Shown here in pieces: positions 3,137 to 53,769 of a stretch of DNA of 64,000 nt. Within the stretch, counting starts at the first letter, position 1. Every line of letters starts with the position of its first letter. The stretch lies in contig OZ316894.1 in assembly GCA_973895155.1 (NCBI GenBank), forward strand, positions 22,938,709 to 23,002,708, written 5' to 3'. The notes under the pieces were generated by a model. It searched no databases and was not told the DNA's origin. It saw nothing but the letters and a program-made list of their open reading frames with translations. This DNA is from Marsupella aquatica (lineage: Eukaryota; Plantae; Marchantiophyta). A program made the position numbers and the translations under genes.

Positions 3137-4495
3137 TGTCCTGGGAATAGTGAGCTCTCAAGATAACGTCGGGTGCCTGGCTGCATGTGCTAATTATGCT
3201 ACTTATCACTTGTAAGAGACCTCATGCTTAGAACCAATTCCCTTGAGAGCCTTGTCCCCTCCCGGCCATTTCTCAAGTTCCTTGGGTTCCCCTGTGCCTC
3301 TTGCGGTTTTCTCCAGATAAATTGGGTGGGAAGGGCATACCCTTTTCCGCAAGGACTCCTAAGCACTTTTGGTACCAAGAGATTTGTGTGATCTACTCCA
3401 GATAATGGCAATAACACCAGAGTAGTCGAGGCCAGGCCCACACTCCACAAATCTCTCCTTCAAGTGATAATCTTCTCTATTTACTTCTATCAACTCTCGG
3501 CTATGATCTCTCTTCTATTACACTATTATGAATACACTCACATCCCCATCTGTGCATCTATATAGTATTAATGGATCCGACGACGCGATAATTGCAGTGT
3601 ATCCTTCTTCCCCAAACTTCTGTGTAAGAACCTGCCTAATATCTACCTTCCTCTTTACTATCAACTTAATGCTCATCGTAGAACACAAATTCAGAATCTA
3701 TGGACTCTCATTCAAATCAATATTGACATTCATACTTCCTATTATGCTTACTAACTAAGAGAGGTTCAGTGGCAGAGCCGTCCCTACTTGATCACAGGTT
3801 CATGGACATTATATCTATGGTATTGGCGGCATAGCCGACCTTGCCAGATTCAAAGCTCCATCTTCAAGGTACTCGAGTGGTGGCAGTGCCTTCCATGACC
3901 AAGAATCAAGAAACTTAGAACCTTTCCACCATAGAAACCGATGGCATAGCCATTCCGTTAGTCCTAGAACCAATGTTCAAGCATTCCTTCAATGCAAATG
4001 CACACAATATGCGCTCTATGCACTCTCTATCCTCGCACTCATACACTTGAAATGCTGAAAAAATGGACTCCTTGGGAGGACGAACCTCCCTCTTATTTAT
4101 AGTTGGAGCCAGGCTACGCTGGTCCCTTTACAAGAGTATCCCAGAAGATACTAGAATTAACTAGAACTTATTAGAACTTACTTTTTACCACGGTAAATTC
4201 TAGAACTCACTTTTTACCATGGTAAATTCTAGAACTTACCGGAATTTACCTTTTTACTATGGTAAATACAAGAAATTACTATTTACTAAGGTAGATTCTA
4301 GAAGTTATTGGAATTACCTTTTTACTATGGTATATACAAGAAATTACTATTTATTAAGGTAGATCTTGAAAATAACCAAGACTTATAATTTTACTTGGTA
4401 AAACCCAAAATCTCATTTTTACCACAAAAACCTCTACTTTTATATTTTCACACAAAACTAAGCTATTCTCCATATAATCTAATTCCCTTACGACA
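3137..4495 (-). repeat. E1 3' LTR (1,359 bp), with internal TAGAACTTAC/TTTTTACCATGGTAAAT-type tandem repeats at ~4150-4400
   Basis: Direct repeat of 40360-41722 with about 27 substitutions (manual count, ~2%) plus a few small indels. Confidence 0.95.
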
Positions 4496-5570: not shown

Positions 5571-5628
5571 GAGGTGTTTACAAAAGACAGTAAACAGCAA
5601 ACAGAAAACTATAATAGGAACTGGTAAC

Positions 5629-8600
5629 TGTGAGTATTGGGTAATACCGAAAACCTGAAATTACTGAAAAATTTAAACTTTTTACAGTGTTTAAGCCTGC
5701 TGTTGCTGTTAAAATGTCAAGTGTAAACTACGGGTATACTTTATAACGGGATTACGCATTTACGTGAATAAACGTTACGGGTTTATGGGTTTACGGGTTT
5801 ACACCAATACGGGGTTACGGCCTACACCTTACGCGTTTAAGAAAAGTGTACGTTACGGCGCTACGGCTAACTTCTCAACGGGACTTAGAAACGGATTGGG
5901 GACTTCATACCTTGATAGGAATCAAGTAGAGAGTTCAGGCGCTCACTCCTGTATTTTCACCACCCCTATTCACTTGCTCTTTCTCTTCGAAAGCAACCTT
6001 TGCAGCACGCAAATCACCGTCGCAGCTATGGCGAACCTGGGTGCTGAGGAACAGTATCAAATTGAAGCTCTAGCAGTCTCAAAAGTAGTGGCAGCTCGTA
6101 TACCACGAGCTCCTGATAGTCTTTCTAATCTACAAGACTCTTTACAGCACTTAGGATTGAAGCGCTTGCTCAGGATCCCCTGGAATGTCGAGCTCGACTC
6201 CTACCTCCAGGATTTTGTGAAGGGGACTATCATCCCGATTGAATTCAGGCGAACGATTCGAGCTCGCCCCAGCCTGTGGACTGTTGAGCAAATTGCTTAC
6301 GCCTTTGGATGCCCGTCAGAAGGAGAGGCGTTATGTTCCAAGAAGCAGGACTTATCTGCTCCATACTTCTCAGGAACTCGGAATGTCAAGAATGGTTGGA
6401 ACTTGTCCCAGTGTACTTATCCTGAATTGAGAGTGCTCATGGAATTTTTGGTACCCATTCTTCATCCGAAAAAGCCAACTCTCTGTCCTGTGGCCTTGGC
6501 TAACACCATTGTAGCTGCTCACAGTGGAGCGATAAAAGTAAATTGGGCCCTACTTTTGTTTAATGTAATGAAGGATCAAGTAAGGAGCTTGGAAGCAGGG
6601 AGGACCACTCGCTTACAGAATTATCTCTCGCAGCTCTATTATACCCATGACTGTTTATATCTGGAGGAAGAGACAGAGAGGGGGTTACTCCTGATTGACT
6701 TGGGTATTGAAGAAGAAATTCCTATGGAGGACATTGTACATGTCACCCCATTGAATTCGAATGATCAGAACGTTGAGGAGAATGCTGATGTTCCTATGGA
6801 GGATGCTTCATTAGAAGTTCCTACACATTCTCCTATGCATAATAGGGAAGTTGTTTGCCAATCAATAAGTAATGAGAATTTCCCTAGCCGGACTACGAAT
6901 GCAGACCCACTAGAAGCTGAAGAAGTAAGGAGCATTCATCAACAAGACGATGTTGCTACACCAACTACCGCTGTCATCCTAAGGACCAGCTCGTCCACTC
7001 CTTCGAAGGCAGAGTCGAATCAGTAGCTTATTGATAAGTTGATATCTCTCCTCAGTTGCAGTGATGATGGACTATATGATGCTGTTAATAATTTGAGAAT
7101 GGAGGTTGTTAGTTTGGGATCACCATTTCATGATCAGCTAAGCCCTGTCAGAATAACCTCTCCCCCAAGAGAACCAGCACCAATGGAGTTTGTGATCTGT
7201 ACTCCTGTCACTGTACAACCCCCTCCCTTAGAAACAAGCAAACCTGTTCCACTAGCAGATAGTACCAGCTATGTGGCCATTGTGGATGACTTGTTAGAAC
7301 TACTACAGTGTGAACCACCACAGATAGCATCTGTGGTCCGCAACTTGATCCAACAATGTCCAACTGCTAGTCCTACTCCTAGCCCAGGTTCGCAACCTTA
7401 CAGCCCTGATTCTAACTACGAACCCACAGAAGGACCCACCTACAATCAGTCACAATATGAGCACCCTTATGACAAAGAAGATCTACCTGAAGACTCTGAT
7501 CCACCCTCAGACGGTGAAACTTATAGATCTTATGATAATTCTCTCGAGTCATCCCCAAGACAGGGATTTGAAGATGTTGATACTGCCTTAAGATCCAATC
7601 CAAACTTAGTAGCAGTTGTCACTTCATCTACTCAAACACCTCGGAATGCCACCATCGAGAGTAGATACCCGAGACATCCAGAGTCCCAAGTGCACAGGTA
7701 TGTGGAGACCTGTAAGATTATGCAGGCCAACAGACCACCGTTTGGAGAGTTCTGGAAATACTACTATCTCAAGAAGACAGAGGCCAGTTATATCTTTGAC
7801 CTCAGGTGTTTTGGAACTTCCAGACTGGAGATGGCACAATTTGATGAGTTTTGGACTGACTCTCTCTACTTCCGACCCATTCTTGCTGTAATGCTACTTC
7901 AGGGTGATGTAGAGGTGGAGGATCCAGATTTAGTTCTGGCATATTTTGGAAATTTGGCAGCTTATGCCCTAGATTTTGTGGTTTCTTTTCTCATGCAGAG
8001 TAAGAAATCTACTTCTCCCCAGAACGCTTACCTTCCTCGAGAGCCCAAGGTTACCCTTGTTTCAACCAGTTCATTAGCTGAGAAACAGAGAATCTGGAAC
8101 AATGTCACCTCTCAAACTCTAGCCAACTTCAACCGGTATTTCAGAGATGTCAAATGGAGGCTTCACCCTTTCTATTCCAGGATGCTGAACTCTGATGAAT
8201 TTCTATACCATTATCCCCAAGTGTATGCTGCTACTTGCAATAATTATGACGTGATTGGGATATATAGAGAAGCTCTTCGAGTAGACATATGTTATCTAAG
8301 GAGAAGAATGCCCCTGATGTATCCTGAGAGACAACTGAGGTGCCTACCATACTCCAGAGGATCCCCACACCAGACTGAACTGATGGAAGTTACTCAAGCT
8401 CGGACTGTTACTCTCGTGGAGCTACTCGAACCAGAAGACATCCGACAACAAGCTTGAGGAGTAGTCTAAGTCTTTTTAGTTAGTTTTAAGAGTAGTGCAT
8501 CTTTCCCTATTTTTCAAAATGTGTTATAGAGCTTTAAAAGCTATGAAACTTATTTAGTGTGTAGTCTGAACCTAGGAAAACTCACTGGCAAAATTTCAGA

Positions 8601-9652
8601 GTTTTCCGGGCCAAAAGTAGAAAGTTAAAAATAGTTGAATTCGTTAAGTCTTTAAGTCTACCGCATTCATCGGATTACGCCTTCACGTTTTTATGCTTTT
8701 ACGCGATTACGTCTTTACGCTTTTACGCTTTTACGGGTTCTTACTTAGCCATTTCCCGGCTTTTCACTTACTGAATTGCTATTTTGACTTTTTGAGGAGT
8801 ATGAAGAGGCATGTCTCTTCGACCCTATGACCTCTTACTCTGTAGGTTTTTACTATAAGACCCCTCCACCGCTAGTGTAGTTGATGGTAAAGTCTAGCAA
8901 TTTTTGTCTTTCCTTGGTGTTCTGCCAGTTGATCATGAATGTTAAGAGTTCGAGATCAAGCTTGACACCAGGAGAAGACTTTCCTCCTTCTTGTGGTTTA
9001 ATTCTTTGAATAAATCATAGGAAGAAAAATTCCTTTTGTGCAAATCTTTTGAGTTGTGATGATAGATTCCTTTTTGGTGATTCATTACAATCTCTTGAGT
9101 TCTTAAAGTTAACTCATTGAGTTTGTGTCTCATTGAAATTGATGGATTTTCTTTCGTTTTGCTCAGTACCATCTAAATGTTGAAGTAGCTACCTTTTAGA
9201 TCTTATCTGAGTACCACTTAGAAAGAAAGGATAAGACATGTTGACGGCATTTTAAAAGGTACTCTAGTAAGCAGTTTAGATCTGAAAAGCAATATGGATT
9301 TGAATCCTTAAGTCTTTTCATTTTGACTTATGTCTAAGGAGTAACCTTGGTCTATTCCAGACTCCCTTAGCATACTTTAAGATATTTTCCCTTGTGTTTT
9401 GTTAATCATTCCCTTTTCATTAATTTATGTTTACATGATGCTGAGTTATCATTAAAAACTACTCACCGCTGTGGAGCGATCTTCAAAATACCTTATTAAA
9501 GTAATCAAACTTGATTACTATGTGTGGAAAACATTTTTAGTTCTTTATTATTGTTTAAATCTATCAAACCAACCCCATCTTGTTCTTTACGGGAACGAAT
9601 ACCGAGTTTGAAGACCTTTAAGTGTGTTTTTGGTTCTTCATAGCAAACTACA
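5629..9652 (+). repeat. G 5' LTR, 4,024 bp, containing a long ORF
   Basis: Starts at the TSD-defined TG and ends ...CAAACTACA just before the PBS. Its last 61 bp recur at 14107-14167. Confidence 0.88.
6028..8457 (+). pseudogene. LTR-encoded protein of unknown function (~810 codons, one in-frame TAG at 7024)
   Basis: ORFs 5764-7026 and 7039-8457 are in frame. Homologous end to end with the H ORF (EFL.PILHP; EFW.YY.KK; LAYFGNL; QRIWNN.TSQ). Confidence 0.85.
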
Positions 9653-9661
9653 TGAGATTTT

Positions 9662-9679
9662 TGGCGCCGCTGCCGGGGA
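9662..9679 (+). promoter_or_regulatory. G primer-binding site TGGCGCCGCTGCCGGGGA (tRNA-Asp type, as in Athila)
   Basis: Lies 9 nt after the LTR end and matches the known Athila-type PBS pattern. Confidence 0.88.
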
Positions 9680-9957
9680 ACAAATCAAGGAAGGTTTGAA
9701 GTACAGGCAGTGAATGCCAAAAGAAGGTTTTAATTCAGTAAAATAAGGGTGATTGCCACTATGGAACCTATTGGAGAATGGGCAATTCCAGGCTAGAAAT
9801 TCGACCTTATACAGTGGAAAATGCACCAGAGGCATTTAGAGAGAGAGTTGGAGGAGAAAATCCTGCCACAATTTTGGAAAGAAAGAGGAAAGCTAAGGCC
9901 AAGAAGGAAAGATTAAGTGGTGCTTAGTAAGGGAATTCTTTTTTTTAGAGAAAGATA

Positions 9958-10818
9958 ATGGTAAAAAAGAACAGGCCTCAGAAAAGAGAGAGAGCCTTGA
10001 TTAGGTCTAGGGATAATCAAACACACACGATTATCAGTGCCACTGCACGAGATAGAGCAACTATTTTGAGAAGGCAAGCGTCCAACCAAGGAGGGGGAAG
10101 CTACTTCTGGGGTGGCGAATTGGTGAAGGTTGACTCATGGGACACCAATTTTTTGTATGATTGTGTATTGGTTTTCAGAAGAGCCATAGATGGAAGACTG
10201 GAATTGATTGAAGCCACTCAAGATGATGAATTTGATGCCAATTTTATTTCCCCATTACTAAAAGAATATGACATTAAGGAGGAAATATTGGAGAAGGAAC
10301 TTGAGTATCAATTAAGGAAAGCATTGGCACGTTTAAAAGGGGATCCCTTATGGAGGAACCAACTTGATTATGTTTTAACAGAGTTTTATCAAGATAATCC
10401 CAATTTAATACTTCGGGAGGAAAGACCGGTTATGACCTCCAATAGAAGGGAGCTGGTTGACACTTGTAAATGGCATGCCAGAAGTGGATGGGCTTTGTTA
10501 AAATGGAGGGATTTAAGTACAGAAAGAGTATCCTTTAAATGGACCTCCACCCTCCCTCAATGTTCTAAATTGACTGATGTAATAGTCTTTAAGAGAGTTT
10601 GGATTGATGATGAGGAATATAAGTTGCAGCCCATTAAGGAAGAACATGATTTAGAATTTGTAATAAGCAAGAATGGTCAAATTAGTAACTGGGTTACTAG
10701 AGAAGAAGAGCTGAGAATCAAGGAGGTGCTGGAAAAATTACACATTGTTGAACACCCTTGGGTGGATGCCCTGGACACTCTAGAAAATTTGTTGAATAAC
10801 TACCGGACCTCGGCATAA
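9958..10818 (+). CDS. Extra 5' ORF (286 aa) upstream of G gag; unknown function
   Basis: Uninterrupted ATG-initiated ORF between PBS and gag, with an apparent internal duplication (D.VLVFRR...LELI / DVIVFKRV...YKLQ). Confidence 0.65.
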   Translation: MVKKNRPQKRERALIRSRDNQTHTIISATARDRATILRRQASNQGGGSYFWGGELVKVDSWDTNFLYDCVLVFRRAIDGRLELIEATQDDEFDANFISPLLKEYDIKEEILEKELEYQLRKALARLKGDPLWRNQLDYVLTEFYQDNPNLILREERPVMTSNRRELVDTCKWHARSGWALLKWRDLSTERVSFKWTSTLPQCSKLTDVIVFKRVWIDDEEYKLQPIKEEHDLEFVISKNGQISNWVTREEELRIKEVLEKLHIVEHPWVDALDTLENLLNNYRTSA

Positions 10819-11558
10819 AAGAGGACAACAGAAGGGGGGATTTCCCCAAATTAAAACCTTGATTCTAACTTTGAATAAGCAATGTGGCAAAATAATTGAA
10901 ATGCCTCCGATCAGGTCTTTAGGCACTTTGAGAGTAAGGAATTTGCATAAATGGTATGTTCAAACATGGGTACTGTCCCTAAAAGGAAGGAGGGGTATTC
11001 ATTGGTTAAGTATTACCTGGTGGGAAGGAGGAGTTTTGCATCTGGTTATTTTAAAGTTAAATGGTAGAGTTACTGGAGAGGAGTATATCCTTATCTCCAT
11101 ACAAGAATTAGCTAGAATAATATTGCAAAATCAAAATAGAAGACTCAGATAAGGAAGGACGAGCCAAAGTTGGTTGTAAACCAATCAGGGGAGAGACACT
11201 TTCCAAGGGGCACCACCGTAATGTGAGGAGATGCCATTACAGGTCAAACATTACGGGTTTACGACTCTACAATTTTACGGAGTTATGACTTTATGTTTAC
11301 GCCTTTACGCCTTTACGACTTTACGTCTCTACGACTTTACGTGTTTACGAGTTGACGAGTTGACGGGTTGACGTTTTTGAGGTTGAGGAGTCACGAGTCA
11401 AGGTTGCGTCTCTTCGACTCGCGACTGAGTCTTTTGACTGTTCGGACATACCGCCCATAAGACCCCAGCGGAAAAGGCACGATACCAAGGGACGCGATTG
11501 TTCCTGCTAGAAGAGACGGTTCAAGAAAGACTAAGGGTCAACCCGACACCATAAACTT

Positions 11559-14106
11559 GTGCCAGAAGAGTGCCGATTTTCAGAATGTGGGATGTCTGAT
11601 AAAGGGAAACGAGGTTGGAGAACAAAACGAGAAGAAAAAGCAAAAGCAGAAGCCTCTCAAGACCCACTTAACCCGAGAGAATTACTGCCGGATTTCCAAT
11701 CACCGAATTATCCGACACCTGGAAGTGTAGCAGAGCGAGTCACCCTGATCCAGCAAAGTGAAACAGAGGGAACAGTACAGAATCCAACAACAAGTCGACC
11801 TGTAATTTATAAATTACGCTCCAGAGATGTGCAATACATTTCACCCAAGCCTAGTAAGAAAGGAGTTGACATTGTCAAACCGTTAAGAAGAACGCAAAGC
11901 TTGGATGAATATGAGGGTACACCTGCGTTGCAGATAATAGGAACAGAAAAGATTACCAATACAAGGCATGAAAGTATAATTGGAGGAGGAATTCAGCAAA
12001 TTGAATCTTTAAAATTTAACTCTGACGCACCTTCGCTCCAGAAAACGCCCATTGGAGAATCTGCAAAATTAGCAGAGATACCTCCCTCGCTTGGTTATGG
12101 AAGTGCTAGCAGCAGCCTTAGCACAATAAGCACTCCCAATTCCTTAAATTCAATTTCACCATTGACGTCTCAAGGATCAGTCGCCAGCACTAGTACACAA
12201 TCTTTGGGAACCACTCCTCCAATTAATTCAATCCCGGTTCCTGTAAGAAGAACTCAAATGGCTCGAAACAATATTCGCTATGATACCTTTAAGGGAACAT
12301 CCAAGGAGGATGCTGAAACTTTTTTGAAGGAATTTGAAGTTGCAGCCACCTCAAATGGGCAAACCCAAGACGCTGAAAAAGCCACAATTTTTGGAGGCTT
12401 GTTGAAGAAAAATGCCCCAAAATGGTATGATCGATTCCCAGACAAGAATGATTGGGGAAAAACGAAGACCGGTTTTCTGGACAAGTATAAGGAGGATGGT
12501 GTTGAGGCAAGAGCCTTTGCCAGAATTTCTCAACTCACCATGAAGAAGTATGGCTCAGTCAGGAAGTATGCAGATAAATTATTGGACCTGGTGGACAAAT
12601 ACAATCCCAATACAGCTAAATCTACCACGAGAGATTGGTTTATCAACGGACTTCCCTCCCAAATTGCACGATATGTGAGAAGGGAAGGTGGTACAACTTT
12701 TGAAGAGGCACAGGAAGCAGCCCAAAAATATGTGGACTCTGAAGTCTCTGAGAAGAAACGAGTTAAGAAGGACTTGAAAAAGGGCAAAAAGAAAGAGAAA
12801 AAGAAAAAGAAAAAGAAAAAGACGAAGTCTTCATCAAGCTCAGAGTCTGATAATGGTGACACCACCAGTACTGAGGGAACAAGTTCCAACTCAAGCTCTA
12901 CCAGTAGTACAAGCGGCAGCTCAAGTTCTGATGATGTAGATACCAAGACAAAAAGGATGCTGAAAAGTACAGTGCCGCAAAAGGCTAAAACCTTGGATAA
13001 AATGATGGATTCCTTGACGAGTAAGTTAAACAAACTCTCGGTGAATGCGACCATCTATAAACCAACTAGAAAATTGCCACCTGCCATTCGAACTAATGTT
13101 TGGTGCACACGCTGCAATAATCAAGGACACTACCACCACGAGTGCCCCACATTACAAAGAGCTGTCAATTATGGAGAAGAGGAAGAGTTGATAGATTATG
13201 GAGATATCTATGCAGTCCAGGCACCATTTGCAGGGCAATACTTCCCTCCAGCTGCAGGACCAACTGCATGGACTCAGCAGAAAATAGCAGGATCATCCTC
13301 ATTTAATTGACCAGGGCCCAGACCACCGATGGGACCTCCGGGAGGATATCCACCTAGAGGAGCACCAAGGGTACAAGGGACTTGTTATAATTGCGGTCAA
13401 CCAGGGCATTATTCGCCAGAGTGTCCATACCCAAAGAGAGAAGTAGGATACACCCCAATTTGTGGCAACTGTGGAAAAGAAGGACACCTGCCCCTGGAGT
13501 GTCCAAACCCACCAAAACCAAAGATGATGGTGAGATTTGCTAAGGATCCTGTGAAGGAAGCACCCAGGCCGGAGGAGGTCAGAATGATCTGTACAGCCAG
13601 GAAAATGTGGAACAATGTAATCATGTAACCATTGAAGCAGGAAGAGAAGAGGAGGTGCACAACATTTATACACAGAATCTATCGGGTATCATCCCAGATA
13701 TTGAAGTGGAACACTTAGTACAAGATCATGTTGTAGGGATGCCCAACCAACGAGTCCAAGAACGGGACCGTGTTCTGGAAACTTACGCCACTACCAGATC
13801 CAAGGCTCATCACGAAAAGAAACATATTAAGGACGGGTCTATGCAGAAGAAATCGTCCAAGAGGAAGAGTAGGACAAGGATACCAGCAGAGGAAGGAATC
13901 CCAAAAGAAGATGACCCAGCATATGACAGGTATGACCCCAAGTACTTTCAGCCTGATATATCTGAAGAGATTAAAACTCAAATACATGAGTTAACTGAGG
14001 ATACATCCCTGCTAGGGGAACGGAAGGAAGTACGTTCGGAGATAAAGAGGCCCGAGCCCAAACTGACCATGGAACCACCACTCAGGCTGAAGGGGTATGA
14101 TATCGT
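11559..14106 (+). pseudogene. gag: G gag (capsid-like region, Lys/Ser-rich tract, three CCHC knuckles), truncated before protease
   Basis: TFKGTSKEDAETFL, WFINGL, CTRCNNQGHYHHEC, CYNCGQPGHYSPEC, CGNCGKEGHLPLEC. In-frame TGA at 13308 and frameshift near 13610. Confidence 0.88.
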
Positions 14107-14167
14107 GGAACGAATACCGAGTTTGAAGACCTTTAAGTGTGTTTTTGGTTCTTCATAGCAAACTACA
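14107..14167 (+). repeat. Remnant (last 61 bp) of the G 3' LTR
   Basis: Identical to the end of the 5' LTR (GGAACGAATACCGAG...AAACTACA) and followed by TSD GTAAC. Confidence 0.92.
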
Positions 14168-15610
14168 GTAACAGCAAAATTTCCTGTTTTGGGAGCACAT
14201 TTCTCCTGGTATTGTGGCAAAATTAAAAAAATCCGTTCCTAAAATACTGATAATTATGCGATGCCGAATACTAGCGCCAGGAGTCTACAGGCAAAACAAT
14301 CACAAATGCATCATGCCAAATACTAGCACCGGGCGTTCAAACCCAAAATAATGAAATATTAATCGCCCAAACATGCCGAATACTAGAGCCGACCGCTTCT
14401 AATGCTTTGTGGAGAAAATCACGAGGATTGATGTTCAGGCTGAGATCCAAGTAGAAACCAAACATTACTAATAGTCTAAGTTCAATATCAAAGCACAGAA
14501 GTAGGACTTAACCAAGGTATCTGAGTCATAACTTCTAACGGGAAATTTTAAGAAAAGAAACCCGAGCTTTTTTATTTAAGTGAAACATATTGTCCTTGAT
14601 GTACAAATATTGCTACATAGGAACACTAAAGTTGCCAGTGCAATTGTAACTAGCGCCAGGCGCTAATACTCCCGGTGGGTGCTTCCTCGTACAATGTCCT
14701 AGCTCGAAGAGTGACAGTCATCATCAATCCCAGCGTCCTGACGATCTGGATCTTGGCGGAAACCATCTAATTGGAAGTTGACATATGCTCTCGTGGGCCA
14801 TCGATACACTGGCCTTCCATGGAATCGAGAAGGAGAAGAACGAGAGCAATGGACTTTGAAAGAAACAATAGTATGTTTATAAGGGGCTTGGATTTCCTGT
14901 TATTGGTCCTCTTGACGGTACTAGTCGCCGACTGAAAGCCAAATGACACTATGGCGGAAATGACAAATATCAAACGGAAACTTCCAACGTGTTTTTTGGG
15001 GAGCGTCGGGCGCTACTTAAACAAGGAGAGGAACCCACACAAAGGACGTTACTAAAGACCACATTAACCATTGAATGGAAGGGGCAACCTTCATCAAACT
15101 CAATTCATATTTAATAAATTCAATAGCGCCCGGCGCTAACAAAAACCAAGGGCATACTCGTACAGTTGGGAGGAAGTTTGACCTGATAGAGGAGAAAATT
15201 GCTACCCTTCAGTGTCATATTTTGAGCTCTCATTCTAGGAGCTATGAGATCTGTCGGTCGACTCTGCCTCATCATCAATATACTTGCTTCTAGAAACATC
15301 ATCTACGTAGGGGTTCCTCATGAACTTCCTGTCTACTCCCCTAAGAAGCCTAAGTCCTTTTGTTTCCCAGCAGAGCATTCTAAATTTCTCTACCTTCCTC
15401 GCGACGTTCTCAACGTATGATGGCAACACAAACGGCTTCTCGGGAGTGATGATTACATTTTAAGCCACTTTCCTCCGGAGTTGAAACTGTTTTCTTTGGT
15501 TCCATTCTGACCTGCTCAAAAGAGAAGCGGAAGAGAAAGAGGAAGTAAGTACTTAACAGATAGAACCGGTGGAATTGATGGTTAGCCAACAATTGAAAGG
15601 ATAAAGGAGC

Positions 15611-18600
15611 TTACAAGAGACGAAAATTACTCAGAAGACTCTTCGCTATCCTCCGTTGACCCATCATGTCGGGTTTCCTCTTTCCCGCCGTCATTGACAT
15701 CCTCAGGAACATATCTTTTGGTGTCCCATCATCTTCATCCGAATCAAAGTTGAGGACAGATCTAAGTCTATCTTTCTTTTTTCGTCCGGTTATTTGAGGA
15801 GGGGGAGGTTGTGTCTCCAAAGGTTTGGGAGAAATGAGATCCAAAAAAATCCTCGAAGCGGTCTCAACAAACTCCCGACAATTTTCTAACCCGATGACAA
15901 AATGGCCTGAGTAATCCCTAGCAATGAACGTACTACCTGAGCCGACGGTCCAATCAATTACAATATCCTTAGGTATCGTAAAGAGTTCAAGGACAGTTTG
16001 CATAAAACCAACCGGTAGTCGGGAATTCCCAGTAAAATGGAGTTCAGGACAATGATCTTCCTTCAAAGATTGTAGCCCAATAAGGTTTGAGATTGAAGGA
16101 TCTTCAACGCTAGATAACGGCTTGAATCATGGATCCTTTGGGACCTTTCCTTTAAAAGAAACTCGACAAAATATATCCAGTCTAAGAGTGAAGACCTGCA
16201 AAAGTTGACAAACCAACTGGATTTTAAAAATTTCTTATTCATGAGAGAAGACCTACTAAGAAAGAAAGAGTAGCGCCGAGCGCTAGTATAGCTCTACTCA
16301 GAGAGAACATTTACCTTGACATCTGTCTTGGATCTGTACATTGGGACAGACATTAAAACATTGTGCGTATTGATGCACATGAACTTCTTGGATTGCTGAC
16401 ATGCAAAAATAACCTGGGAAATCTGATCGTGGTCATCCGAGTATAAGATAGCGAGCATGCCATCATCGGAAAGGAAAGGGTCCATCGCCCAAAAAAATGA
16501 TTCGGCTGCTGTGTGATCTGTGACATTCCATTTCGGGACCCGACGGTCAACAATTGTGGGTTTCAAACCAGTTGGGAGATAGATGAAACCCGCATTCACC
16601 CCAAATGATTGTTCCTTCCCACCTCGAATGATTCTTTTATCTCTACACCCCGATTTGATCAAATCCTTATCCCACTTCTCAGCGTCTGAGACCCAATCTG
16701 GCTTCTCTTCCTTACTAAATGCACTATCAATGAATTCTGCCAAGCTTGATTCGACCATATAGTGTCTTCCGAGTTTAGTCTTGAAAGTCCCCACATCCCG
16801 TTGGATACCGGCCCCAAAAGCATTATCTCACGACGATTCCCAGGCATCGATGGTCCTTTTCTTCTTCTTCTTCTTTGTGCTTGTAGCATCCACAGGAACT
16901 ATAACCTTCCCCTTCTCAACGGGGGTGATGGGGTCTGGATTGGCACCAGTGTTGGCCTCAGAGACTTCTGGTGTTGCATCAACTTTTGTGTCATCCGTGG
17001 CGGCATCAGATTTTCGACCACCTACCAAACAACGGTGTCAAGCACAGAAAGAGTGTTAGCGCCAGGCGCTGACCAAACACCCACATTAATTTTGGGAAAT
17101 ATGACACATTAAACTTATGACACATGATAGCGCCAGGCGCTAACAAAGAAGGAAGTTGGAAGAAGGAGGTGTAGCTTACGTTTTTTCCCAGACTTGGCAT
17201 AGCACTTGCCACAGGGGCATCCGCCTTGGCTTTGGCTCTTGGTTTTCGGCTTCGATCAACATGAACCACTGTGGTTTCGCATTTTTTTTGCAACTCAGTC
17301 GTCGACGAGTTGACGTCCCCCTCAATTTCTTGCTTCATGTCGGAGATAAATTGTCTCGGAACTTGGGATTTAGACAGTTTATGGAAAGCATCCTTCTCAG
17401 TGTCGTCAAAAGGAGAATCCCATCTGTCGGTGTCAAGGTACCAAGGGCAGTGAATTCTCTCCCACTCGGACAATTTCCTCGGTGGAAGTATACCCTCAGC
17501 GGGATACATCGAATACAGTTCGGCCAAAATGTCTCCATCTGCGCAGATGACCCAATTCTGGAAAGTAGCTGGGTAAGCCCAAAAATAGTCAGGCTTCACA
17601 ATCTCCATGTGCATGAAGAAACGATAGACATGTATTGTTTCGCTCGCTTTTGATTCTTGAGTGTGTAGTCTTCCTTGTCCGGGTACTTGGACATCCACAT
17701 CGTATTGAAAAACTTACCTTTCACTGCATCCCCAAATTTTTTGAAATCATTGCACACTATTTCAACGAGTGAATCATAAGACTCACACTTCCATTCCTCC
17801 AATCGATTGGAAGGAATTATTTCACTGATTTGCTGGAGGGCAGTCTGTAGCATACCAATGGCAATTCCCTCCACGCTATTCCAAGTTTGCCAAGTGTGGC
17901 ACCACTGCTTCACAGGGTCATCGCTAACGCTTTGCGGATGAAAGAACTGCTTCCTGAGCTCTGGCGTGCAATGCGCTACTAACAAAGTGCTCCTCAATTT
18001 GGGGTTGAGGGCGGAGATTGCTATAAATAACCTGGCACGATCCATGGTACAGACAACCGCATCCGGTTTCTTCTCGCGTTTGTTCACCTGTGTCATCGGA
18101 TACATCTCAGCACAGGTTGTCATGAAGTCTTCAAACTCAGGACTCAACAAGGGAGTGATCTTTGAGACCTTGATCGCCCAATCCTTCGTTGCTTCTTTCA
18201 TCATGACCGCATGTCGTTTGGATGTCTCTTCTTGAGACCAAGGATTTCCTTGAGCGGTGGCCGACTCCATGTCCATCTTGAATTGTCGAGAATAGGATTT
18301 AATCTTATTCTCGCATAAGATATACAGAATGCTTCTTGAGGCATTTTCTTGGAATACCACGATCCTTTTCGAGTCTTCTGCATCACCTGCCCAAACTTCT
18401 TGAAGTTTGCCCCATCGATGATTGATTTGTAGTATTCTAGATTGTTGGACAAAATCCTCTTAATTCGGTCTGCATCAAGTATCCAGGAAGGTTCCACCAC
18501 GGCCTGTCCAAGTCTACAGAAGAATTTGTCAGTCAATAGCGCCAGGCGCTAGTAAAAACTACACTATAAAAGATAAGGATAGGTGAAATTCAAAGAGAGA

Positions 18601-19697: not shown

Positions 19698-20154
19698 TGT
19701 TGGGTATTTACTCTTACGTCTAGGTTAGGTATGACGTGGTTGGTACAACAACGTGGGTTGGTACAACTACGTGGTTAGGTACAACTACGTGATTAGGTAC
19801 AACTATGTGGTTAGGTACAACTACGTGATTAGGTACAACTATGTGGTTAGGTACAACTATGTGGTTAGGTACAACTATGTGGTTAGGTACAACTAAGTTG
19901 CACACTATATCATAAGAGGCATGTGTGCTTGGAGAGGTAGAACCAAGGCTCATTGTTATGGAGCTACTTGAGAGATAGGGAGAGCTTACACTGTGGAGAC
20001 TCGGTATAGCCGACGGGCTTAGAGTTCAGTAAAGCTCTCTTGTGTGTTCCCATGGACGTAGCCTCAAGGAGGTGAACCACGTATCTCTTGTGTCGACTAT
20101 TGTGCGTTGGATGGTTCATGGGCTTGCCGTTGCGATCGTCGTCTATGCTCAACA
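19698..20154 (+). repeat. Copia 5' LTR (457 bp) with an 18-bp tandem array (GTGGTTAGGTACAACTAT)
   Basis: Repeat of 25351-25789, with one extra 18-bp unit and ~2 substitutions outside the array. Confidence 0.95.
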
Positions 20155-20156
20155 AT

Positions 20157-20168
20157 TGGTATCAGAGC
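20157..20168 (+). promoter_or_regulatory. Copia PBS TGGTATCAGAGC (tRNA-iMet)
   Basis: 2 nt after the LTR end. Confidence 0.95.
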
Positions 20169-35218: not shown

Positions 35219-38200
35219 TGTAATAGCTGTCTAAATTAGAAACTTAGAAATAATGAATTTTTAAAAAAAAAAATTGTAGTTAGAAATAGATTAAACATAG
35301 CCAATTAATCTACTTTTAGATATAAGTAAGATTAAGACTTAAGTTAGGCAGATTAATGGATAATACCTTGAGTAATTAGGTAGGGGTGAGACGAGTCAGA
35401 AGAAACTACTATCGATGTTCTCGAAGCGCGAAAGGAAGATTGGTGCTGCCAAGTTTGACCGAGGGCGCAAAGAGTGTTTTGGCATGAAAGCGCAACGGCG
35501 TATCGGCGGAAAAGCGCAACAACGCAACGGAGCAAAGGCGCAACAGAGCGAAAGCACAACGGCAGATCAAGTGACATAGACCTCTTCGGATCGATAGTTG
35601 GTGACAACGCCTTGTTTCTTGTTACTATGGTAGACGAAGGGGGAGAGATGACCGCGAGAGGAGTTCCTCTACCTAAGGCCGTCCCTGTGACATGCCCTAC
35701 GATGAAAAGAAGCTTGCATGTTTTGAAGGAAGCACTGGCGGTCATGCACCTGAGTAAATTGCTCACTCTGCCTTGGTCCGTAACTTCATTGAGTTTTCTG
35801 AAGGATTTCAGTGATGGGGCACGAATCAAAGTTGGTATGGTGGGAACTGCTCGGGCGAATCCAGAATTCTGGACTCTGCAATTTGTGCTGATGCTTTCGA
35901 CTGTCCCACCGAAGGTGACAGCTTACACTCACGACAAGGGGAGACTGCGAGGCCTTATTTTTTTGGAACTCAAAACGTTCGCCATGGGTGGAAAATGGAC
36001 CAGTGCACCGACTATACTCTTAAAATCATTTTAGAGTTTTTGATTCCAATTCTCCATCCCATTCAACCACATATGATACCTGTGTCACTTGCCAATACTA
36101 TTGTGGCAAGTTGGAAGGGAGTTGCTCAGATAAATTGGGCCTTGTTGCTAAGACAGGTTATTTTATCTCAAGTAAAGAAGGTGAAAATGGACGAGTTCAC
36201 TACTCTCCCTTCTTATCTTTGCCAATTGTACTTTCATGGGAATTGCTTACTTCCAGGCAAACAAGAGGAGCGGATCAGACTGCTTGATGAATTTGATCTT
36301 AGTGAATCAGGAAACGAGGATACTGAAAGAGAAGATGCTGATGAAGTCCAATTGGAGGTTCCCCCACCTATCTGTTCAGAGGTTACCCCTCTTACCCATA
36401 GAGAACCACTTGTGGAACCCAGAAGAACCTCTTCACCAATTCTTGATAACCCACTATCCCCTTTCGAAGATCTCAACCAGGATAGAAGACTTTACACCCC
36501 CCTCAATTCCAATCTTGATGAGTATACATCCGAGCCAGAACCAGTAGGAACGTCCCCACCTTCTGTCCCTGTAGTTGACATATCTATCCCTAATACCCTT
36601 CGATCACCCACAGTCCCAACTCAGAATTTATCTGTAGACAGCTTGACCCCTTCTATGAGATCCCGTAAGAGACCCTTCATGTTCAGCAAACCAACGGCTG
36701 ATGAACTGAGAGTAGAATCTAATCAGCAAATTATTGATAAGTTAAGCAACTTATTGATCTGTGAACCTGAGGAGATAGTTGACTCTGTTGAGAGGTTAAG
36801 AGCAGCCTCTGTAACTCTACCTGAACCTAGTAGTCCTGACTCTCCATACTCTCCAACCCAAGGTCCGACTCAGTTCTATCCCGAAGTGATGGAGCTATTT
36901 CGACCCACCTCCAATATTAGGGTTACAAATATTACTGAAGTTGAACCAATGGAGGAAAATGATGCATCACCCAGGTTAGAGCTTCAACAGACACTATCTG
37001 CTTCCCCAAGTCACTCTGCTGAACACTATTCTACTCTTGTTAATAAAATGACTGACATGCTGGAGTGTGATGAGAGACACTTAATTGATGTCTTGGATGA
37101 TCTTCTGCATAAGACATCAGCTTTACTTACTCGAGATCATCATCGAGAATATTGTGAGGATTTAGTCCATAGGCTTACACAGATTTTCGGATGCAACCCG
37201 AAGCAAGTCTATTATGCCGTCCGTTATCATACCTCAGCCTCTGGCTCTCCCATTTACTATTCTTCCCCTTCTTCTAGTCATTCACTCACTTCTCCTTACA
37301 GTCCTTCAAATCAACCAGACCAGCTCTATCCTAGTTTTCCAGAACCTGAGATCACCCCTACAGGTGAACATCTTGCCACTTCTTATCTTGACACCCTTCC
37401 ACCAGGTCAAGATAAATCCTGCCAGGTCAATTTCATCCCTACGCTGCATATTGACCCTAAAACCCCTCAGGAGAATATTACACAATTTGCTGAGTTTGTT
37501 AGAGTTTCAGACCTTAGAACTCCTCCCATTCTTGAGTTTTGGCAATACTATCATAAGAAGAGAGTTGAATGTCTCTATATCCTGAAGCTTCATCTGAAGG
37601 ATGTCACCCGCCTAGAGATAGGAGAGATGGATGAGATCTGGACAGAGGCTAAATATTTTTGCCCTATTCTTGCTGTCATAATCCTGGATCCTGTATTGGA
37701 GAATGGAGATCTGGCCCTGGCATACTTCGGGAACTTACCTGCCGATGTCTTGGAATTCATCATCAACTTTTTGAGACAAACCAACAAACGATATCAGGTC
37801 GACCATGGTGTCCTACCAGAGAAACCTTTTATTGTTCAACAATTTATCTCACCAATTGCTGAGAGTCAGAGAATCTGGAACAACATTACTTCCCAGCGGT
37901 TGGCTGAGTACACCCTGAAGTGGCGGGAACTGTTACCTCATGTCACCCCACTTCTATCACTTGCCAAGGACTCTGACACCTTCATCAACAAGTTTCCACG
38001 CAACTACCATACTACTTGTTGTAGTTATGATTTGGTCGGCATCTATATGCAAGCTAGCAAGGTGAACACTATGTTTCATAGGAGACTACTTCCCATTCTA
38101 AATGCTGAACGACAAATCAGGTCTCTTCCATTTGCTCGACATGATACGCAGGTTATGGATTTCCTTCGAGAGGTGATTTGAACTGAGACATTCAGGAGTG

Positions 38201-39724
38201 TTCAACAACCGGATCAGTCAGCACTACTTCAGGAGGATTGACCTACTCCATCCTTCGAGTTAGGATTAGTCAATCTCCACCATTTTTGTTAAATAGTTAA
38301 AGTAGTTAGAAAAGTCTCATACTTTTCAGGAGATAGCCCTTATGTAGCAAACCATACCCTGAAAGTATCGACCAAAATTGACATGTCGTTTAGAAGTTAT
38401 AGCATTTTTAGTTTTGCAGTAGCGTGAGTGCGCAAAGGCGCAACGGCGCTAGTGCTCCAAAGCGCAAAGGCGCAACGGCGCTTCCGACACTTAGAAAATT
38501 TTTCGGAACAGTGTATTTTTTATCCGACAGCAATTTCCATCAATTTTATTAAGGCACTTAGACACCTCAGAAAAGTCTAAAATTTTGGCAGCATGTAGCA
38601 TGTATATAAATCTTCTACCTATGAAAGTTTCACCCCATTTTGACTTTTATGTTAGAAATTAAAATTCTGATAAACTCACTATTTATTAGTTTTACCACAA
38701 AAGTGCAAAAAACACTTTTACTCCAGTTTACACTAGGGATAACTTTTGGTTAGTTTTTCATTCCACCAACATTCTAGTGAACCTTGAGTACTCCTATAGC
38801 ATATTTTCATACTTTTAAACTTTAGTTTATGACCCTTAAGATGTGACAGGGCATGTCCTTTCATTATCTCTTTTCCCCTTTAGTTTTTGCTAACCTATAT
38901 GTAGTAGAGTTTTTGCCACTTTTTGTGTGAAGAAATTTTATGAGCGCTCAGTTGCAAGATTGCAACTTTGTTACCTCCACCTTGTAAAGAGAACTCCATT
39001 GCGTATGACTACTTAATACAAAGGAATTCTTGCCCCTTCAAGTCTAAATGAATGAGAAGTTTGGACCCTTGAAGTAAAATTATTGTGATTGTTAAATTTT
39101 TTGAGTATGTGGAAATAGATTCCTTGTTGGTGATGTTTCACATATTCCTTAGTTCTTGATGCATAGTTTTTGACGTAACATTGCTTGTGCACGGGATGCA
39201 AAGATTGTTACTTACCAATTACTTATGGCTTCAAATTTGATTATGATGGTGTCTCTTATTCGTGACACAAAGTACCGATTGGATACAGAAGTGATTGATT
39301 ACTAGTCTCCACTCAGTACCTTGGAAGGAAAAGTTGAGACATGTTGACGACATTTTAGTAATCATTCTAGTATCGTAATCCTTTCTAGAAATATTCTTGC
39401 GGATATACCACCTAAATCATATCAAATGAAGTTATGTTGAGGAGTCACCTTGGTTGTTTCCTAACTCTCTCACCATACCTCAGGATTTTCATTATGTTTT
39501 ATTAATTGTTTCCATTTGTTAATTTTATTTTTAATATTAAGCAAACATTTAAAACTATGCCTTGATGAGCAACCATAGTAAAAGGCTCAACTTTGTGTTT
39601 TTGTTACCTTACTCATTCATAAGTGCTAAATCATAGAAAATCATTCCTTACATGTTCTTCCATGGGAAGGAATACCGAGTTTTGGATCTTAAATGTTCAT
39701 TTATGTCCCTAGTGTGATACTACA
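35219..39724 (+). mobile_element. H: 4,506-bp gene-bearing solo LTR of an Athila-like family related to G
   Basis: TGTA...TACA ends and 5-bp TSD AAGTG (35214-35218 / 39725-39729). The 3'-end block GGGAAGGAATACCGAGTTT matches G (GGGAACGAATACCGAGTTT). No PBS or pol. Confidence 0.9.
35627..38181 (+). pseudogene. LTR-encoded protein (~850 codons, one frameshift ~35880), homolog of 6028-8457
   Basis: LLTLPW...ARANPEFWT; HGWKMDQCT...EFLIPILHP; C-terminal domain aligned by eye with the G ORF. Confidence 0.85.
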
Positions 39725-40359: not shown

Positions 40360-41722
40360 TGTCCTGGGAATAGTGAGCTCTCAAGAACACGCCGGGTGTC
40401 TGGCTGCATATGCTAATTATGCTACTTATCACTTGTAAGAGACCTCATGCTTAGAACCAATTCCCTTGAGAGCCTTGTCCCCTCCCGGCCATTTCTCAAG
40501 TTCCTTGGGTTCCCCTGTGCCTCTTGCGGTTTTCTCCAGATAAATTGGGTGGGAAGGGCATACCCTTTTCCGCAAGGACTCCTAAGCACTTTTGGTACCA
40601 AGAGATTTGTGTGATCTACTCCAGATAATGGCAATAACACCAGAGTAGTCGAGGCCAGGCCCACACTCCACAAATCTCTCCTCCAAGTGATAATCTTCTC
40701 TACTTACTTCTATCAACTCTTGGCTATGATCTCTCTTCTATTACACTATTATGAATACACTCACATCCCCATCTATGCATCTATATAGTATTAATGGATC
40801 CGACGACGCGATAATTGTAGTGTATCCTTCTTTCCCAAACTTCTGTGTAAGAACCTGCCTAATATCTACCTTCCTCTTTACTATCAACTTAATGCTCATC
40901 GTAGAACGCAAATTCAGAATCTATGGACTCTCATTCAAATCAATATTGATATTCATACTTCCTATTATGCTTACTAACTAAGAGAGGTTCAGTGGCAGAG
41001 CCGTCCCTACTTGATCACAGGTTCATGGACATTATTTCTATGGTATTGGTGGCATAGCCGACCTTTCCAGATTCAAAGCTCCATCTTCAAGGTACTCGAG
41101 TGGTGGCAGTGTCTTCCATGACCAAGAATCAAGAAACTTAGAACCTTTCCACCATAGAAACCGATGGCATAGCCATTCCGTTAGTCCTAGAACCAATGTT
41201 CAAGCATTTCTTCAATGCAAATGCACACAATATGCGCTCTATGCACTCTCTATCCTCGCACTCATACACTTGAAATGCTGAAAAAATGGACTCAGCTTGG
41301 GAGGGCGAACCTCCCTCTTATTTATAGTTGGAGCCAGGCTACGCTGGTCATTTTACAAGAGTATCCCAGAAGATACTAGAATTAACTAGAACTTACTAGA
41401 ACTTACTTTTTACCACGGTAAATTCTAGAGCTCACTTTTTACCATGGTAAATTATAGAACTTACCGGAATTTACCTTTTTACTATGGTAAATACAAGAAA
41501 TTACTATTTACTAAGGTAGATTCTAAAAGTTATTGGAATTTACCTTTTTACTATGGTATATACAAGAAATTACTATTTACTAAGGTAGATCTTGAAAATA
41601 ACCAAGACTTATAATTTTACTTGGTAAAACCCCAAAATCTCATTTTTACCACAAAAACCTCTACTTTTATATTTTCACACAAAACCAAGCTATTCTCCAT
41701 ATAATCTAATTCCCTTACGACA
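40360..41722 (-). repeat. E1 5' LTR (1,363 bp)
   Basis: Direct repeat of 3137-4495. Confidence 0.95.
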
Positions 41723-45835: not shown

Positions 45836-47207
45836 TGTGGTATGCCACATATGTAAGAATCCTTAAAAATGGAAGAAGAAATGGTGAAATGATGAACTTT
45901 CAAAACTTTTTGGAGCTTTTTGATTGCATTTAAGTCATTTGGTGACTTGCAACAGGATATCACTAAAGCTCCTATTTATTTGAAAACTTTCAAGAACTTC
46001 AGTTCAGCTTGAAATTTGCAAGCATGATCTTTGGAGTATAATCTACTTGCTGGCACAGTTCAAGACTTTTTGGAGTTGGTTTACTTGGTTTTTGATCAGG
46101 TCTATGTTAGACAATTGTTATATTGGCATTTAATTATATCAAGTTTTAATTAGTTCTACTTTGTTTTACATATTAGTTTTCTTTGAATTGGAGGATGAAG
46201 AGGTATGTCTTTTCATCTTTCCAAGGATATCCTTAATACTTATTTTGGTTAGTTTTTGGTTTTCAAGGAGTGAAAAGTTACACCTTTTCATTCCCTCTTG
46301 ACCATCCTTGCTTGAGCCATTATATAAGGAAGGGTGATACACTAGTTAGATAAGTTAGTTCTTGCATATCTTAGCCAAAGAGATTGTCCCTTTGACACTG
46401 ATTATGGAGACATTTAAGACATATTTTGAATGTCGCTCCTTAGGTGAAGAAAAGGAGACTAACTTCCTTCTGTATTAGATTCCATGAGGAATTTGGATAT
46501 GGAAGTAAAACTACATAAATACATGTGATTTGTATCTTGGATCATAGATAGCATTGGTTTGATATCCAATATATGAAACTCTTTCCTTATGAAACTCTAG
46601 AGTTGTCCAAAATATCTTTGACCATGTATGATTGTTAATAATTTGTGGAAGTCTAGAGGGGAATTCATTTCAAGCTTTCTAGGGTAAAAGTCCATTCTCA
46701 TGAGTTTTAGTACCGCCATTGGCAAACAAAGACTGATAGCATTCATACCAAGTTGCGCATCGCCAGAGTATTGAATCCTGTTGCCGGCAGTTTACTAGTT
46801 GGGACTGCGCATGATATCCAGAAAGATCTTTGTGGGCTTGGTGAACTAATACTAGAAGGAGGAGAAATGAGAGTATAAATTTAGGAAGCAGTCAGAGAGG
46901 GGTTTTGTGTACCTTTTAACATCTTAAAGTGGCTATATCTTTCGATAAGCTATGGTGATGGAGGTAGTGCAGTGTTGAAGCCTGATTTTAAAAGTCCTAG
47001 AGTTATAGTCTATGAAAGAGAATTATATTTCCTTGTCTTTTGTTAATTGTGCATTTTGGTTTCAAATGTGTAAGAGGTTGAGTTTCCTCGTTAAACCACT
47101 CATTTGTGTTAAAATATTCCATTCCCATTCTGTTTTGCTCTTTAGGGGAACGAATTCTGAGTTTTTACTTTTATTATATGCATTTTATGCATTGACCCTA
47201 TACCACA
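45836..47207 (+). mobile_element. I: 5' LTR (1,372 bp, no long ORF) of another Athila-like element
   Basis: TGTGGTA...TACCACA terminal inverted repeat and PBS downstream. Shares blocks with the G LTR (GAGGAxxTGAAGAGG.ATGTCT; GGGAACGAAT..GAGTTT). Right end not found in window. Confidence 0.85.
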
Positions 47208-51180: not shown

Positions 51181-53769
51181 ATGTTAAGACCCTCCAAGAT
51201 GTCGGGTGAGTTGTACACTGCTCGCACCACTCCCGGTGCTGCCTGCCCGCTGCACAGCCCCAACTACGATTAATGTTTTGCCACCAGCCCCATGTCCATC
51301 GACGGAAACTTTTTGTCGATTTCAAAATGGGCAGGGAGCGATGCGGTACAACCCCGCGCCACACACACCCTGCATCCACACTTTGTGCCAAAACTGAACT
51401 CCGACAGAAACACTATATGCACACACCATGCTGCAGGTTGCAGGGAGCTTGTGAGACGACCAAGACAGTGAGAAGTCTGACTTTCCATTTTTTCATACCA
51501 ATCTAAAATACTTCTCGGTCTCATAGAATGCGGTCAACAATTAGAGCCTCGATATCCACCTACGCTCTTTGGGGCTTCTAAAAATGGTATGTATGTTTTC
51601 TTTGTTGTTAGTCATTGTTTTGTATTTTTGGACTGAGACAATCTCAGTCCAAAGTTCAAATTTGGTTTTCTTTCTAAGAGTTGTATTTGTTGCACTTGCA
51701 GAATTGAGACCTTGTCCCATCAAGCGGAAGTTGCTGATTTTGGATCTTAACAAAATACTTTGGGATTCACTTGAATTCCAAAGCAAGGGCAAATCCAAAA
51801 ACATTGTGACCCCAAATGGAGTGCATTGGAATAGATCAAATGGAACTACTCGCATGTATATAGAGAGGCTAGGGCTCCATGAGTTTTTAAAGTTGGTTTT
51901 TGACCAGTTTGACATTGCAATTTGGACATGTGCTGGGATGCCGCGGACAGGGAAAATGTTGAACATGATGTTCACTGTTGAGGAGCGGTTGAAACTGAAG
52001 TTTGTATTCACACAAGTGGAAGCCTTTGACACAGGCATTCAAAGGCGTGACATTACAAATGGAAAGGCAAATGTGCTATTGAAGGATTTTTGGGTGGTAT
52101 GGAGTGCATTTGGAAATCTATATGATGAAACCAACACACTCCTTGTGGATGACTCCCCTCTGAAGGCATTTGCCAACCCAGACATGACCGGACTATTTCC
52201 AGTACCCTACACGCATGCCAATCGCGGAGACAATTTTCTTCTAACAATTCTTTGGCCATGTCTTGAGAAACTGTCACATGCAAGTGACATTCGTTGTTAT
52301 CTTCTCCTAAACTCTCCAAAGTGGTCTCTATTGCACATTAAGAGAGACAAGGCAAAAAATGAGATTACTTATGATCAACTTAGTAAGAGATGTGCAACAA
52401 AAATTTGGAAGTCACAGTATAGGCATAGTGTGCTTGTGATGCCTAGCCAGGAATCACTAAGCCCGGTTTACATGGTAAGCAGGAGTGTACCCTGGAAACA
52501 CCTTAGTATAGGACCAAAAACAAGGAAAATATAAACAAATTAAGGATGACTATGGAACCCGGGCCGAGGCCGGAAGTAAGGACACCGGGGGAGAGAACAC
52601 GATTAGGGTTAGGGTGCGCTAAGCGTCGGCGGCTAGGGGTGACCAACGGGAGGGGAGACCAGAGGAGGAGAGGGGTAAGGACCGCTCGCGAGGAATAGTG
52701 GCTCATTTGCAAGAACGAACTGGGCAGACAACTACGGGAGGCCAAATGCTGTCACCTATTTAGACAAGCACTTGGGGTGGGAACAGATACCAATGATCGA
52801 CTCAAGGAGGGTATGAGCAACATCAATCAAGCAGCACATTTTTGGGGATGCCTGTTCAAACGGGCAGGTGAGTACGTCAGGACTTACGAGAACGAAGAAT
52901 CAGAGAGAGCAGCTCGAGAACGGCAGGAGCTCGCTCGGCTCTGGGAACTCCAGAAGATGGCTTTCTTAGGAGAAGAACTTATCAAGGTGGAGTTCTTGTG
53001 GACTCCTACTGCCAATCAGCTTGACAACCTTCTATTTTGCGAAAACAGAATTGTCGGCATCCGGGAAGCCATCAATCGCTGCAACGACCTACACTAGGAG
53101 TTGAAGAGTAACACGGAGGGGTAGACAAAGGCAATCTTGCTAGGAGAAACATCCATGGCAGCCAAGATGAAGAGGAAAGGAAACAACAACAAAGAGGCCA
53201 CCCCGGCAAAAAGAATGAGGTCAGCGGCACCTAGGAAGCCAGCAGAGCAGCCGAGCAGGACAAGGGGAGAAGCCAATGAGGAAGAGGTTGATCCCATCAA
53301 TGCCATTCCAACAAACGATGACACCTAGAAAGGCTGGGCGGCGACCCTACCGGAGGAAGTGCAATTACACTTTGCACGGGAGGAGGATGCATGCTTTACA
53401 GCCATGCAGACCAAGAAGTACCAAGGCTTCATGGCCGGATCCGGCTTGGAAGCCTTCGTAAGATTACCATGGCTGAAGCCGGAGGTGCCGGACTCAGACT
53501 TGTTAGAATTCGTGGGATCATGGGAACCCGAGACCAATTCCACAAGGGTGTATGGGAAGGATTTCTATCTCACTCCCCAGGTGATTGCTGAAGTGTTTGG
53601 CTTGCCGATGGGTAATAAGACCAAGGTTGATACCAGGAAGACCTTACCTGACAAGGAGTTTTGGTCGTTCCCAGGACCATCAACAAAGAATGGCTTCTTC
53701 CGGAACACCTGCACCAACCTGCACATCGGAGAGATGATTGATTTCTTGCGAGTGACCATGCACTGTAAC

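Follow-up and report, generated by a model that had tools for sequence, protein, structure and literature searches.

We find a complete accessory gene within a long terminal repeat (LTR) of a plant retrotransposon, here called element G, in the window (the whole 64,000-nucleotide stretch that was analysed), which is a nest of such elements. On our preferred reading, to which we give a probability of about 0.5, the product of this gene is a VANC-like factor that binds DNA in a sequence-specific manner and keeps the CG arrays of its own element unsilenced. The feature is real and brings together three known things: an extra ORF of the Ogre/Tat/Athila (OTA) type, a gene with a probable place in U3, and a VANC-like protein accompanied by motif arrays. 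The sequence-only reading of this stretch had named no function; the candidate function likely follows from a predicted VANC-like fold together with the arrays.

The LTR limits proposed in that reading, from a target site duplication (TSD) on the left and a primer binding site (PBS) plus a duplicated 61-bp end on the right, are borne out: the TSD is GTAAC, the PBS lies at 9662 and the 61 bp recur at 14107-14167 (Table 1). The left junction reads GTAAC|TGTGAG; on the right the LTR closes in ...ACTACA (9652), with TGGCGCCGCTGCCGGGGA downstream at 9662. An empty site, in which 5623 is joined to 14168, is present in one contig (run X1, one of four runs), with five letters fitting either side. Taken together, the TSD, the PBS, gag and the recurrent 61 bp, which are all that is left of the second LTR, identify G as a 5' LTR plus gag from which pol and most of the 3' LTR have been deleted. 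TG...CA ends and TSDs within the 4-6 bp expected of LTR retrotransposons are found both in G and in a second insertion, the solo LTR H; in G the PBS lies directly 3' of the LTR, with gag downstream.

Table 1. Features of elements G and H and of the comparison LTR I (window positions)
Feature	Position	Strand	Remarks
Left TSD of G	5624..5628	+	GTAAC; within integrase (Pfam rve) of host gypsy element; empty-site joint
5' LTR of G	5629..9652	+	4024 bp, TG...CA ends
Array 1 of G	5729..5865	+	TTACG words; ~165 bp before ATG; candidate promoter/binding array of LTR gene
LTR-resident ORF of G	6028..8457	+	809 codons + stop; wholly within LTR; premature TAG at codon 333 (7024-7026)
N-terminal VANC/Transposase_32-like domain	6028..6702	+	about aa 1-225
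Helical C-terminal domain	7651..8454	+	conserved; no known match
Array 2 of G	8676..8735	+	TTACG type; 219 bp after stop, ~120 bp before TATA candidate
TATA-like TATAAGA	8854..8860	+	putative genomic-RNA promoter of G; read by eye
PBS of G	9662..9679	+	non-Met type
Open frame between PBS and gag	9949..10818	+	289 codons; no Pfam match near cut-off
Array 3 of G	11252..11375	+	TTACG/TTGACG; strongest; before gag
gag of G	11535..13310	+	Ty3_capsid E 1e-5, Retrotrans_gag E 5e-5; both slightly below cut-off
Remnant of G 3' LTR	14107..14167	+	last 61 bp; 100% identical to 9592-9652; GTAAC next
Right TSD of G	14168..14172	+	GTAAC
Solo LTR H	35219..39724	+	4506 bp, TG...CA; TSD AAGTG either side; no internal region
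Arrays of H	35465-35563, 38430-38481		GCGCAA type; CpG word on other strand TTGCG
Gene homologue in H	about 35627-38181	+	frameshift near 35881-35890
LTR I	45836..47207	+	1372 bp; PBS type as in G; no ORF homologue, no CpG array

The PBS presumably corresponds to tRNA-Asp. G resembles OTA elements in its non-Met PBS, its 5-bp TSD, LTRs of several kb and an accessory ORF pointing to PF20167/PF03078 (PMC6317226), and the non-Met PBS, long LTRs and extra ORF are also traits of the Athila clade (PMC6317226), to which G is a candidate member; pol, the source of the RT/RH/INT phylogeny and the missing aRH by which that clade is recognised, is deleted in G and absent from H. The extra-ORF families of OTA elements, which belong to Ty3/gypsy, are PMD (PF10536), Transposase_28 (PF04195), Athila ORF-1 (PF03078) and Transposase_32 (PF20167). 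The ORFs described so far are internal to their elements, in most cases downstream of pol and ahead of the 3' LTR (PMC7264820, PMC11963269), whereas that of G is wholly within the LTR and has an additional C-terminal domain with no known match. The open frame between PBS and gag appears as a second extra ORF of G, in 5' position. Beside G, in transposon-like DNA, an open frame on the minus strand (15611-16126) matches Pfam N6_N4_Mtase above cut-off (E 1e-6).

The claimed gene of about 810 codons does lie entirely inside the LTR, but the G copy is broken by an in-frame TAG; the other five frames over the ORF contain 39-64 stops each. Three relatives of 808 residues are intact (P0001, with 67% identity, P0004 and P0005, on contigs of 3.5-3.9 kb), and two more members of the cluster of relatives are shorter pieces. 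A search of viral contigs for related loci gave 63 pattern matches, none of which was confirmed. The diverged homologue described as full-length in H spans both the N- and the C-terminal domain, at 36-47% amino acid identity to G in the aligned blocks, but is frameshifted; its main frame runs for 765 codons without a stop, in agreement with conservation, and the alignment of H with G covers the ORF and the 3' non-coding part. For 437 codons aligned in three blocks, G and H differ with pN 0.41, pS 0.81 (saturated) and dN 0.59, the bootstrap range of pN/pS being 0.44-0.56 in a protein-guided codon alignment that omits the poorly aligned linker and leans to conservation and amino acid matches. 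Codon identity is 57-67% at second and 26-36% at third positions. Judged from these two sequences, purifying selection on the gene holds, which answers the dN/dS check put forward in the sequence-only reading.

In the G protein, a folded N domain is followed by an acidic linker rich in P, S and T and by a C domain of helices. A search with the N domain identified 328 relatives at E ≤ 0.001, and 105 sequences from the best 150 of these were aligned with the query. At gathering cut-off, Pfam (including PMD, Transposase_32 and Athila ORF-1) gave no match for G, H or P0001; PF20167 was weakly matched by 2 of the 106 aligned sequences (best E 0.005). The Atlas lead for the N domain was likewise PF20167 (23 of 30 matches in the set, 0.91; 157-160 shared features), with PF03078 also indicated (17% of one cluster), both being plant-transposon families at 0.90-0.91. 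The N domain was modelled with a pLDDT of 94.3 and a pTM of 0.89, and in a search of 48,161 solved chains that did not depend on Foldseek DNA-bound VANC21 came first (Z 7.5, rmsd 4.2, 199 of 233 residues aligned, 8% identity) and was the only chain with Z ≥ 5, the runner-up reaching Z 4.3 over 60 residues. This Z falls short of 8, the tool's line for caution, which counts against a VANC reading, yet the match stands clear and spans the N domain; upon realignment, VANC21 gave Z 6.8 over 202 residues and the next structure 2.9. Foldseek returned nothing at E ≤ 0.001 for the N domain; the VANC21-DNA structure (9LNJ) had E 1.2 and, with a TM of 0.37, was the best among the matches listed, the others reaching at most 0.18. 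A likeness of predicted folds does not by itself give a function. A word-indexed search for short N-domain relatives retained 0 of 385 candidates, a viral fold library gave no match, and sequence searches of the PDB gave none for the N domain and only coiled-coil and acidic matches beyond it.

The fold check suggested by the sequence-only reading thus gave a confident model with one modest structural match for the N domain and no Foldseek match for the C domain. The C domain has few relatives (P0123, in which the N domain is also present, P0155 and P0156), a modest model (pLDDT 64.7, six sequences) and Atlas scores all below 0.9. A short helical repeat with an L..L..C.. pattern occurs twice in the G linker (7027-7340) and three times in H (36740-37240), and similar stretches are seen in the relatives P0009, P0012 and P0029. 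An env-like ORF was considered for the LTR gene and rejected, a simple scan for transmembrane segments giving no hydrophobic 19-residue stretch above 1.6.

The short motif bound by VANC21 is arrayed in non-coding DNA of the transposon that encodes it, where the protein reduces methylation, and related VANCs have different, family-specific motifs, again as tandem arrays in non-coding regions (PMC5735166). G and H show a comparable arrangement. A scan over periods 5-13 yielded five CpG peaks of period 8 with scores of at least 12 in the window (27, 15, 14, 12 and 12), all of them in non-coding DNA of G and H, the next best scoring 5. The words differ between the two families compared, being of the TTACG type in G and of the GCGCAA type in H, so that the DNA of the encoding element carries family-specific arrays of short motifs, as for VANC; in both, the downstream array ends ~120 bp before the TATA. 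Scores were 0-1 in LTR I, in the LTR of the host gypsy element, in an LTR-like repeat (19698-20161) and in both ORFs. Local tests gave p <0.0002 to 0.0012 for regions picked after being seen. In count-preserving shuffles of the window, at least one such peak arose in 3 of 300 trials with 100-bp blocks and in 1 of 300 with 200-bp blocks, and two peaks in 0 of 300 with either; an initial window-wide null, with scores of at least 12 in 77 of 100 shuffles, was rejected, the CG count being 4234 in the shuffles vs 1926 observed. Word enrichment over the whole LTR is moderate on its own (TTACG 15 vs 4.2 expected). CpG-dense arrays amid such CG depletion (1926 vs 4234) suggest long-term protection from methylation.

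Given a VANC-like fold and family-specific arrays at three sites that are likely regulatory, the VANC logic is the best reading, with clear differences from VANC21 and VANC6. The likeness comprises a modest match of the predicted N-domain fold (Z 7.5 over 199 residues), family-specific motif arrays in the same element, and a conserved domain combined with variable regions (PMC5735166). VANDAL, by contrast, is a Mutator-like DNA transposon, whereas the carrier here is an LTR retrotransposon by its LTR, PBS and gag, with the gene in the LTR; the G and H words centre on CpG and recur at a constant spacing of 8 bp, unlike the VANC words YAGTATTAY/AGTTGTCC, and could be sites of host transcription factors; and the LTR-gene protein, the activity of which is a prediction, has no sequence similarity to VANC. 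VANC has also been termed dicot-specific (PMC13547354), unlike the case here.

Two functional alternatives have to be weighed. According to the first, which we regard as rather unlikely, the protein binds the arrays but is simply a transactivator, or else a self-limiting, MAIN/PMD-like repressor, rather than acting by removal of methylation. The VANC-like fold, the arrays and their promoter positions would fit this; the VANC-like MAIN/PMD proteins silence (PMC5418596, PMC13547354), which counts against an anti-silencing role, silencing by MAIN and MAIL1 is largely independent of DNA methylation (PMC5418596), and a regulatory role has been proposed for the Retand TRP28 ORFs (PMC11963269). Against it, the arrays stand out as CpG-dense islands from DNA that is otherwise depleted in CG, and the sole solved structural match is an anti-silencing factor.

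The second alternative, which we consider unlikely, keeps the gene in the LTR but makes the arrays unrelated enhancers for host transcription factors, with a protein serving particle assembly, nuclear import or targeting. The ACG/GCG cores presumably resemble common plant factor sites, the Z of the VANC21 match is modest, and segment J, a further part of the window that is described below, contains the N domain but no such arrays (maximum period-8 score 5), an observation that also counts against the VANC reading. This alternative sits poorly with arrays that flank the gene at matching places in G and H, with different words, and that have no counterpart in LTR I, the host LTR or the LTR-like repeat (scores 0-1), and with a protein that is not env-like (maximal Kyte-Doolittle 19-mer 1.57 in a simple scan, below 1.6).

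All readings so far place the gene in an LTR, a residence that is supported by two independent TSD-bounded insertions, G and H, of the same layout. A hidden short LTR would need an internal repeat of the LTR start; a search for the first 20 bases in G and H found none, the best candidates having 7-8 mismatches of 20. As for a gene cassette with inverted ends of its own, which had been named as a check, pairs of 10 bp around the cassette number 0 in G and 1 in H, the latter well outside the cassette. That G and H are rearranged short-LTR remnants, or LTRs with a nested gene-bearing insertion, draws on the lack of a complete long-LTR pair in the window and on the large deletion in G itself, but is very improbable given two diverged insertions with identical part order and perfect TSDs, an LTR start that is not repeated internally, no inverted ends hugging the cassette and, as a weak hint, a summed contig depth over the ORF that in each of the four runs is ~4-16x that over the internal part of G (averaged by hand from runs found via this stretch, where depth is not copy number). 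LTR I, introduced in the sequence-only reading as a related LTR without the gene, indeed gives no match to the N-domain profile and has neither gene nor array, but judged by sequence it is only weakly related to G, with which it shares no more than 63 bp (71%) close to the 3' end.

A TATA-like TATAAGA in G, missed by a strict pattern scan, is the candidate promoter of the genomic RNA. Loose contig ends at 8845 carry TATTTATA in other copies in all four runs, and TATATAA is found at 38603 in H and at 46321 in LTR I. The distance from TATA to LTR end is ~800 bp in G, ~1120 in H and ~890 in I, which indicates that the extra length of G and H sits upstream of the promoter. As the gene lies upstream of the putative TATA, it would be located in U3. 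Reverse transcription copies a U3 gene into both LTRs from a single 3' copy in the RNA, so that each insertion would carry the gene twice.

The closest precedent for this placement is MMTV sag, which as a U3 gene is duplicated with the LTR and outlasts solo-LTR formation, solo LTRs making up 490 of the 527 contigs that bear sag (PMC4667437). In contrast to the G gene, sag is only mostly within U3 and acts on host immunity; the G gene, part of a plant retrotransposon, is fully within the LTR, has 810 codons and probably targets the DNA of its own element. The proposal that the gene outlives solo-LTR formation is borne out by H, although sag had set the precedent (PMC4667437), the mobility of the element is not preserved, and both gene copies of the window are broken, which also counts against an anti-silencing role.

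In the anti-silencing reading that we prefer, a single copy of the gene would sit at the 3' end of the genomic RNA and be placed in both LTRs by reverse transcription, so that each LTR, solo or paired, would form a self-contained unit of array 1, gene, array 2, TATA and R/U5. The N domain is predicted to bind the 8-bp-spaced word of its own family, TTACG-type in G and GCGCAA-type in H, at the gene's putative own promoter, at the LTR promoter and upstream of gag. The result would be a positive loop, which solo LTRs could feed in trans; such LTRs would likely keep a self-protecting switch. The arrangement probably arose when the plus-strand priming site moved upstream of an ordinary extra ORF between pol and the 3' LTR, for which one step would suffice. 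Tentatively, we extend this to a reading in which plant gypsy elements have shifted an anti-silencing gene of VANC type, along with the arrays that it targets, into the LTR, so that each insertion or solo LTR would be a protein-plus-target module able to keep the family unmethylated in trans.

A literature search over titles and abstract openings, with most subscription papers outside its reach, found no full gene in the LTR of a plant retrotransposon and no VANC-like system in an LTR element; the supplementary element tables of PMC6317226 could contain cases. That element-encoded PMD proteins counter silencing has already been speculated (PMC5418596, PMC8616336), and whether the extra ORFs of Athila influence the epigenetic state of their elements is left open in PMC12844716. 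A "TRAP" anti-silencing protein, considered for ATHILA5, was dropped, as neither PMC11410651 nor the literature search yielded it. What the OTA extra ORFs do is named as an open question in the literature (PMC7264820, PMC6317226, PMC11963269). In the present case, a candidate protein is paired with a candidate target word, and a second family with a different word provides a built-in specificity control, which makes the question directly testable. If the anti-silencing reading is true, an LTR retrotransposon would possess an anti-silencing system with sequence specificity, Athila/Transposase_32-type extra ORFs would gain a function, and solo LTRs, commonly regarded as the dead ends of element removal, would go on supplying a chromatin factor that acts in trans; annotation that treats LTRs as non-coding would miss such genes.

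Segment J (52435-61669, 9.2 kb) has TG...CA ends, a GTGCT TSD on either side and 7 of 8 inverted end bases, with a second copy at 36-2965. It splits a NIF-domain ORF, the frame of which resumes beyond J, and contains three diverged tandem gene units with the G-type N domain and coiled coils (profile matches at 53443-53751 and 54693-55034). Searches with five window proteins found no gag, RT or integrase in it; terminal direct repeats are absent, and a PBS was not seen. It is possibly a second, larger gene-bearing solo LTR, which suggests that the move of such a gene into an LTR may have happened more than once.

The host gypsy element (3137-41722, minus strand) has 1.36-kb LTRs that are 97.7% identical and a 4-bp TSD, CCGT, which fits the NCGN preference reported for Phygy elements (PMC6317226); it harbours G, H, a copia element and DNA-transposon-like DNA. 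Its LTR (41380-41620, 4165-4430) contains a strongly enriched array of GGTAAA/TTACTA-type words, the length of which varies among runs, and LTR I is enriched in GATATC-type words.
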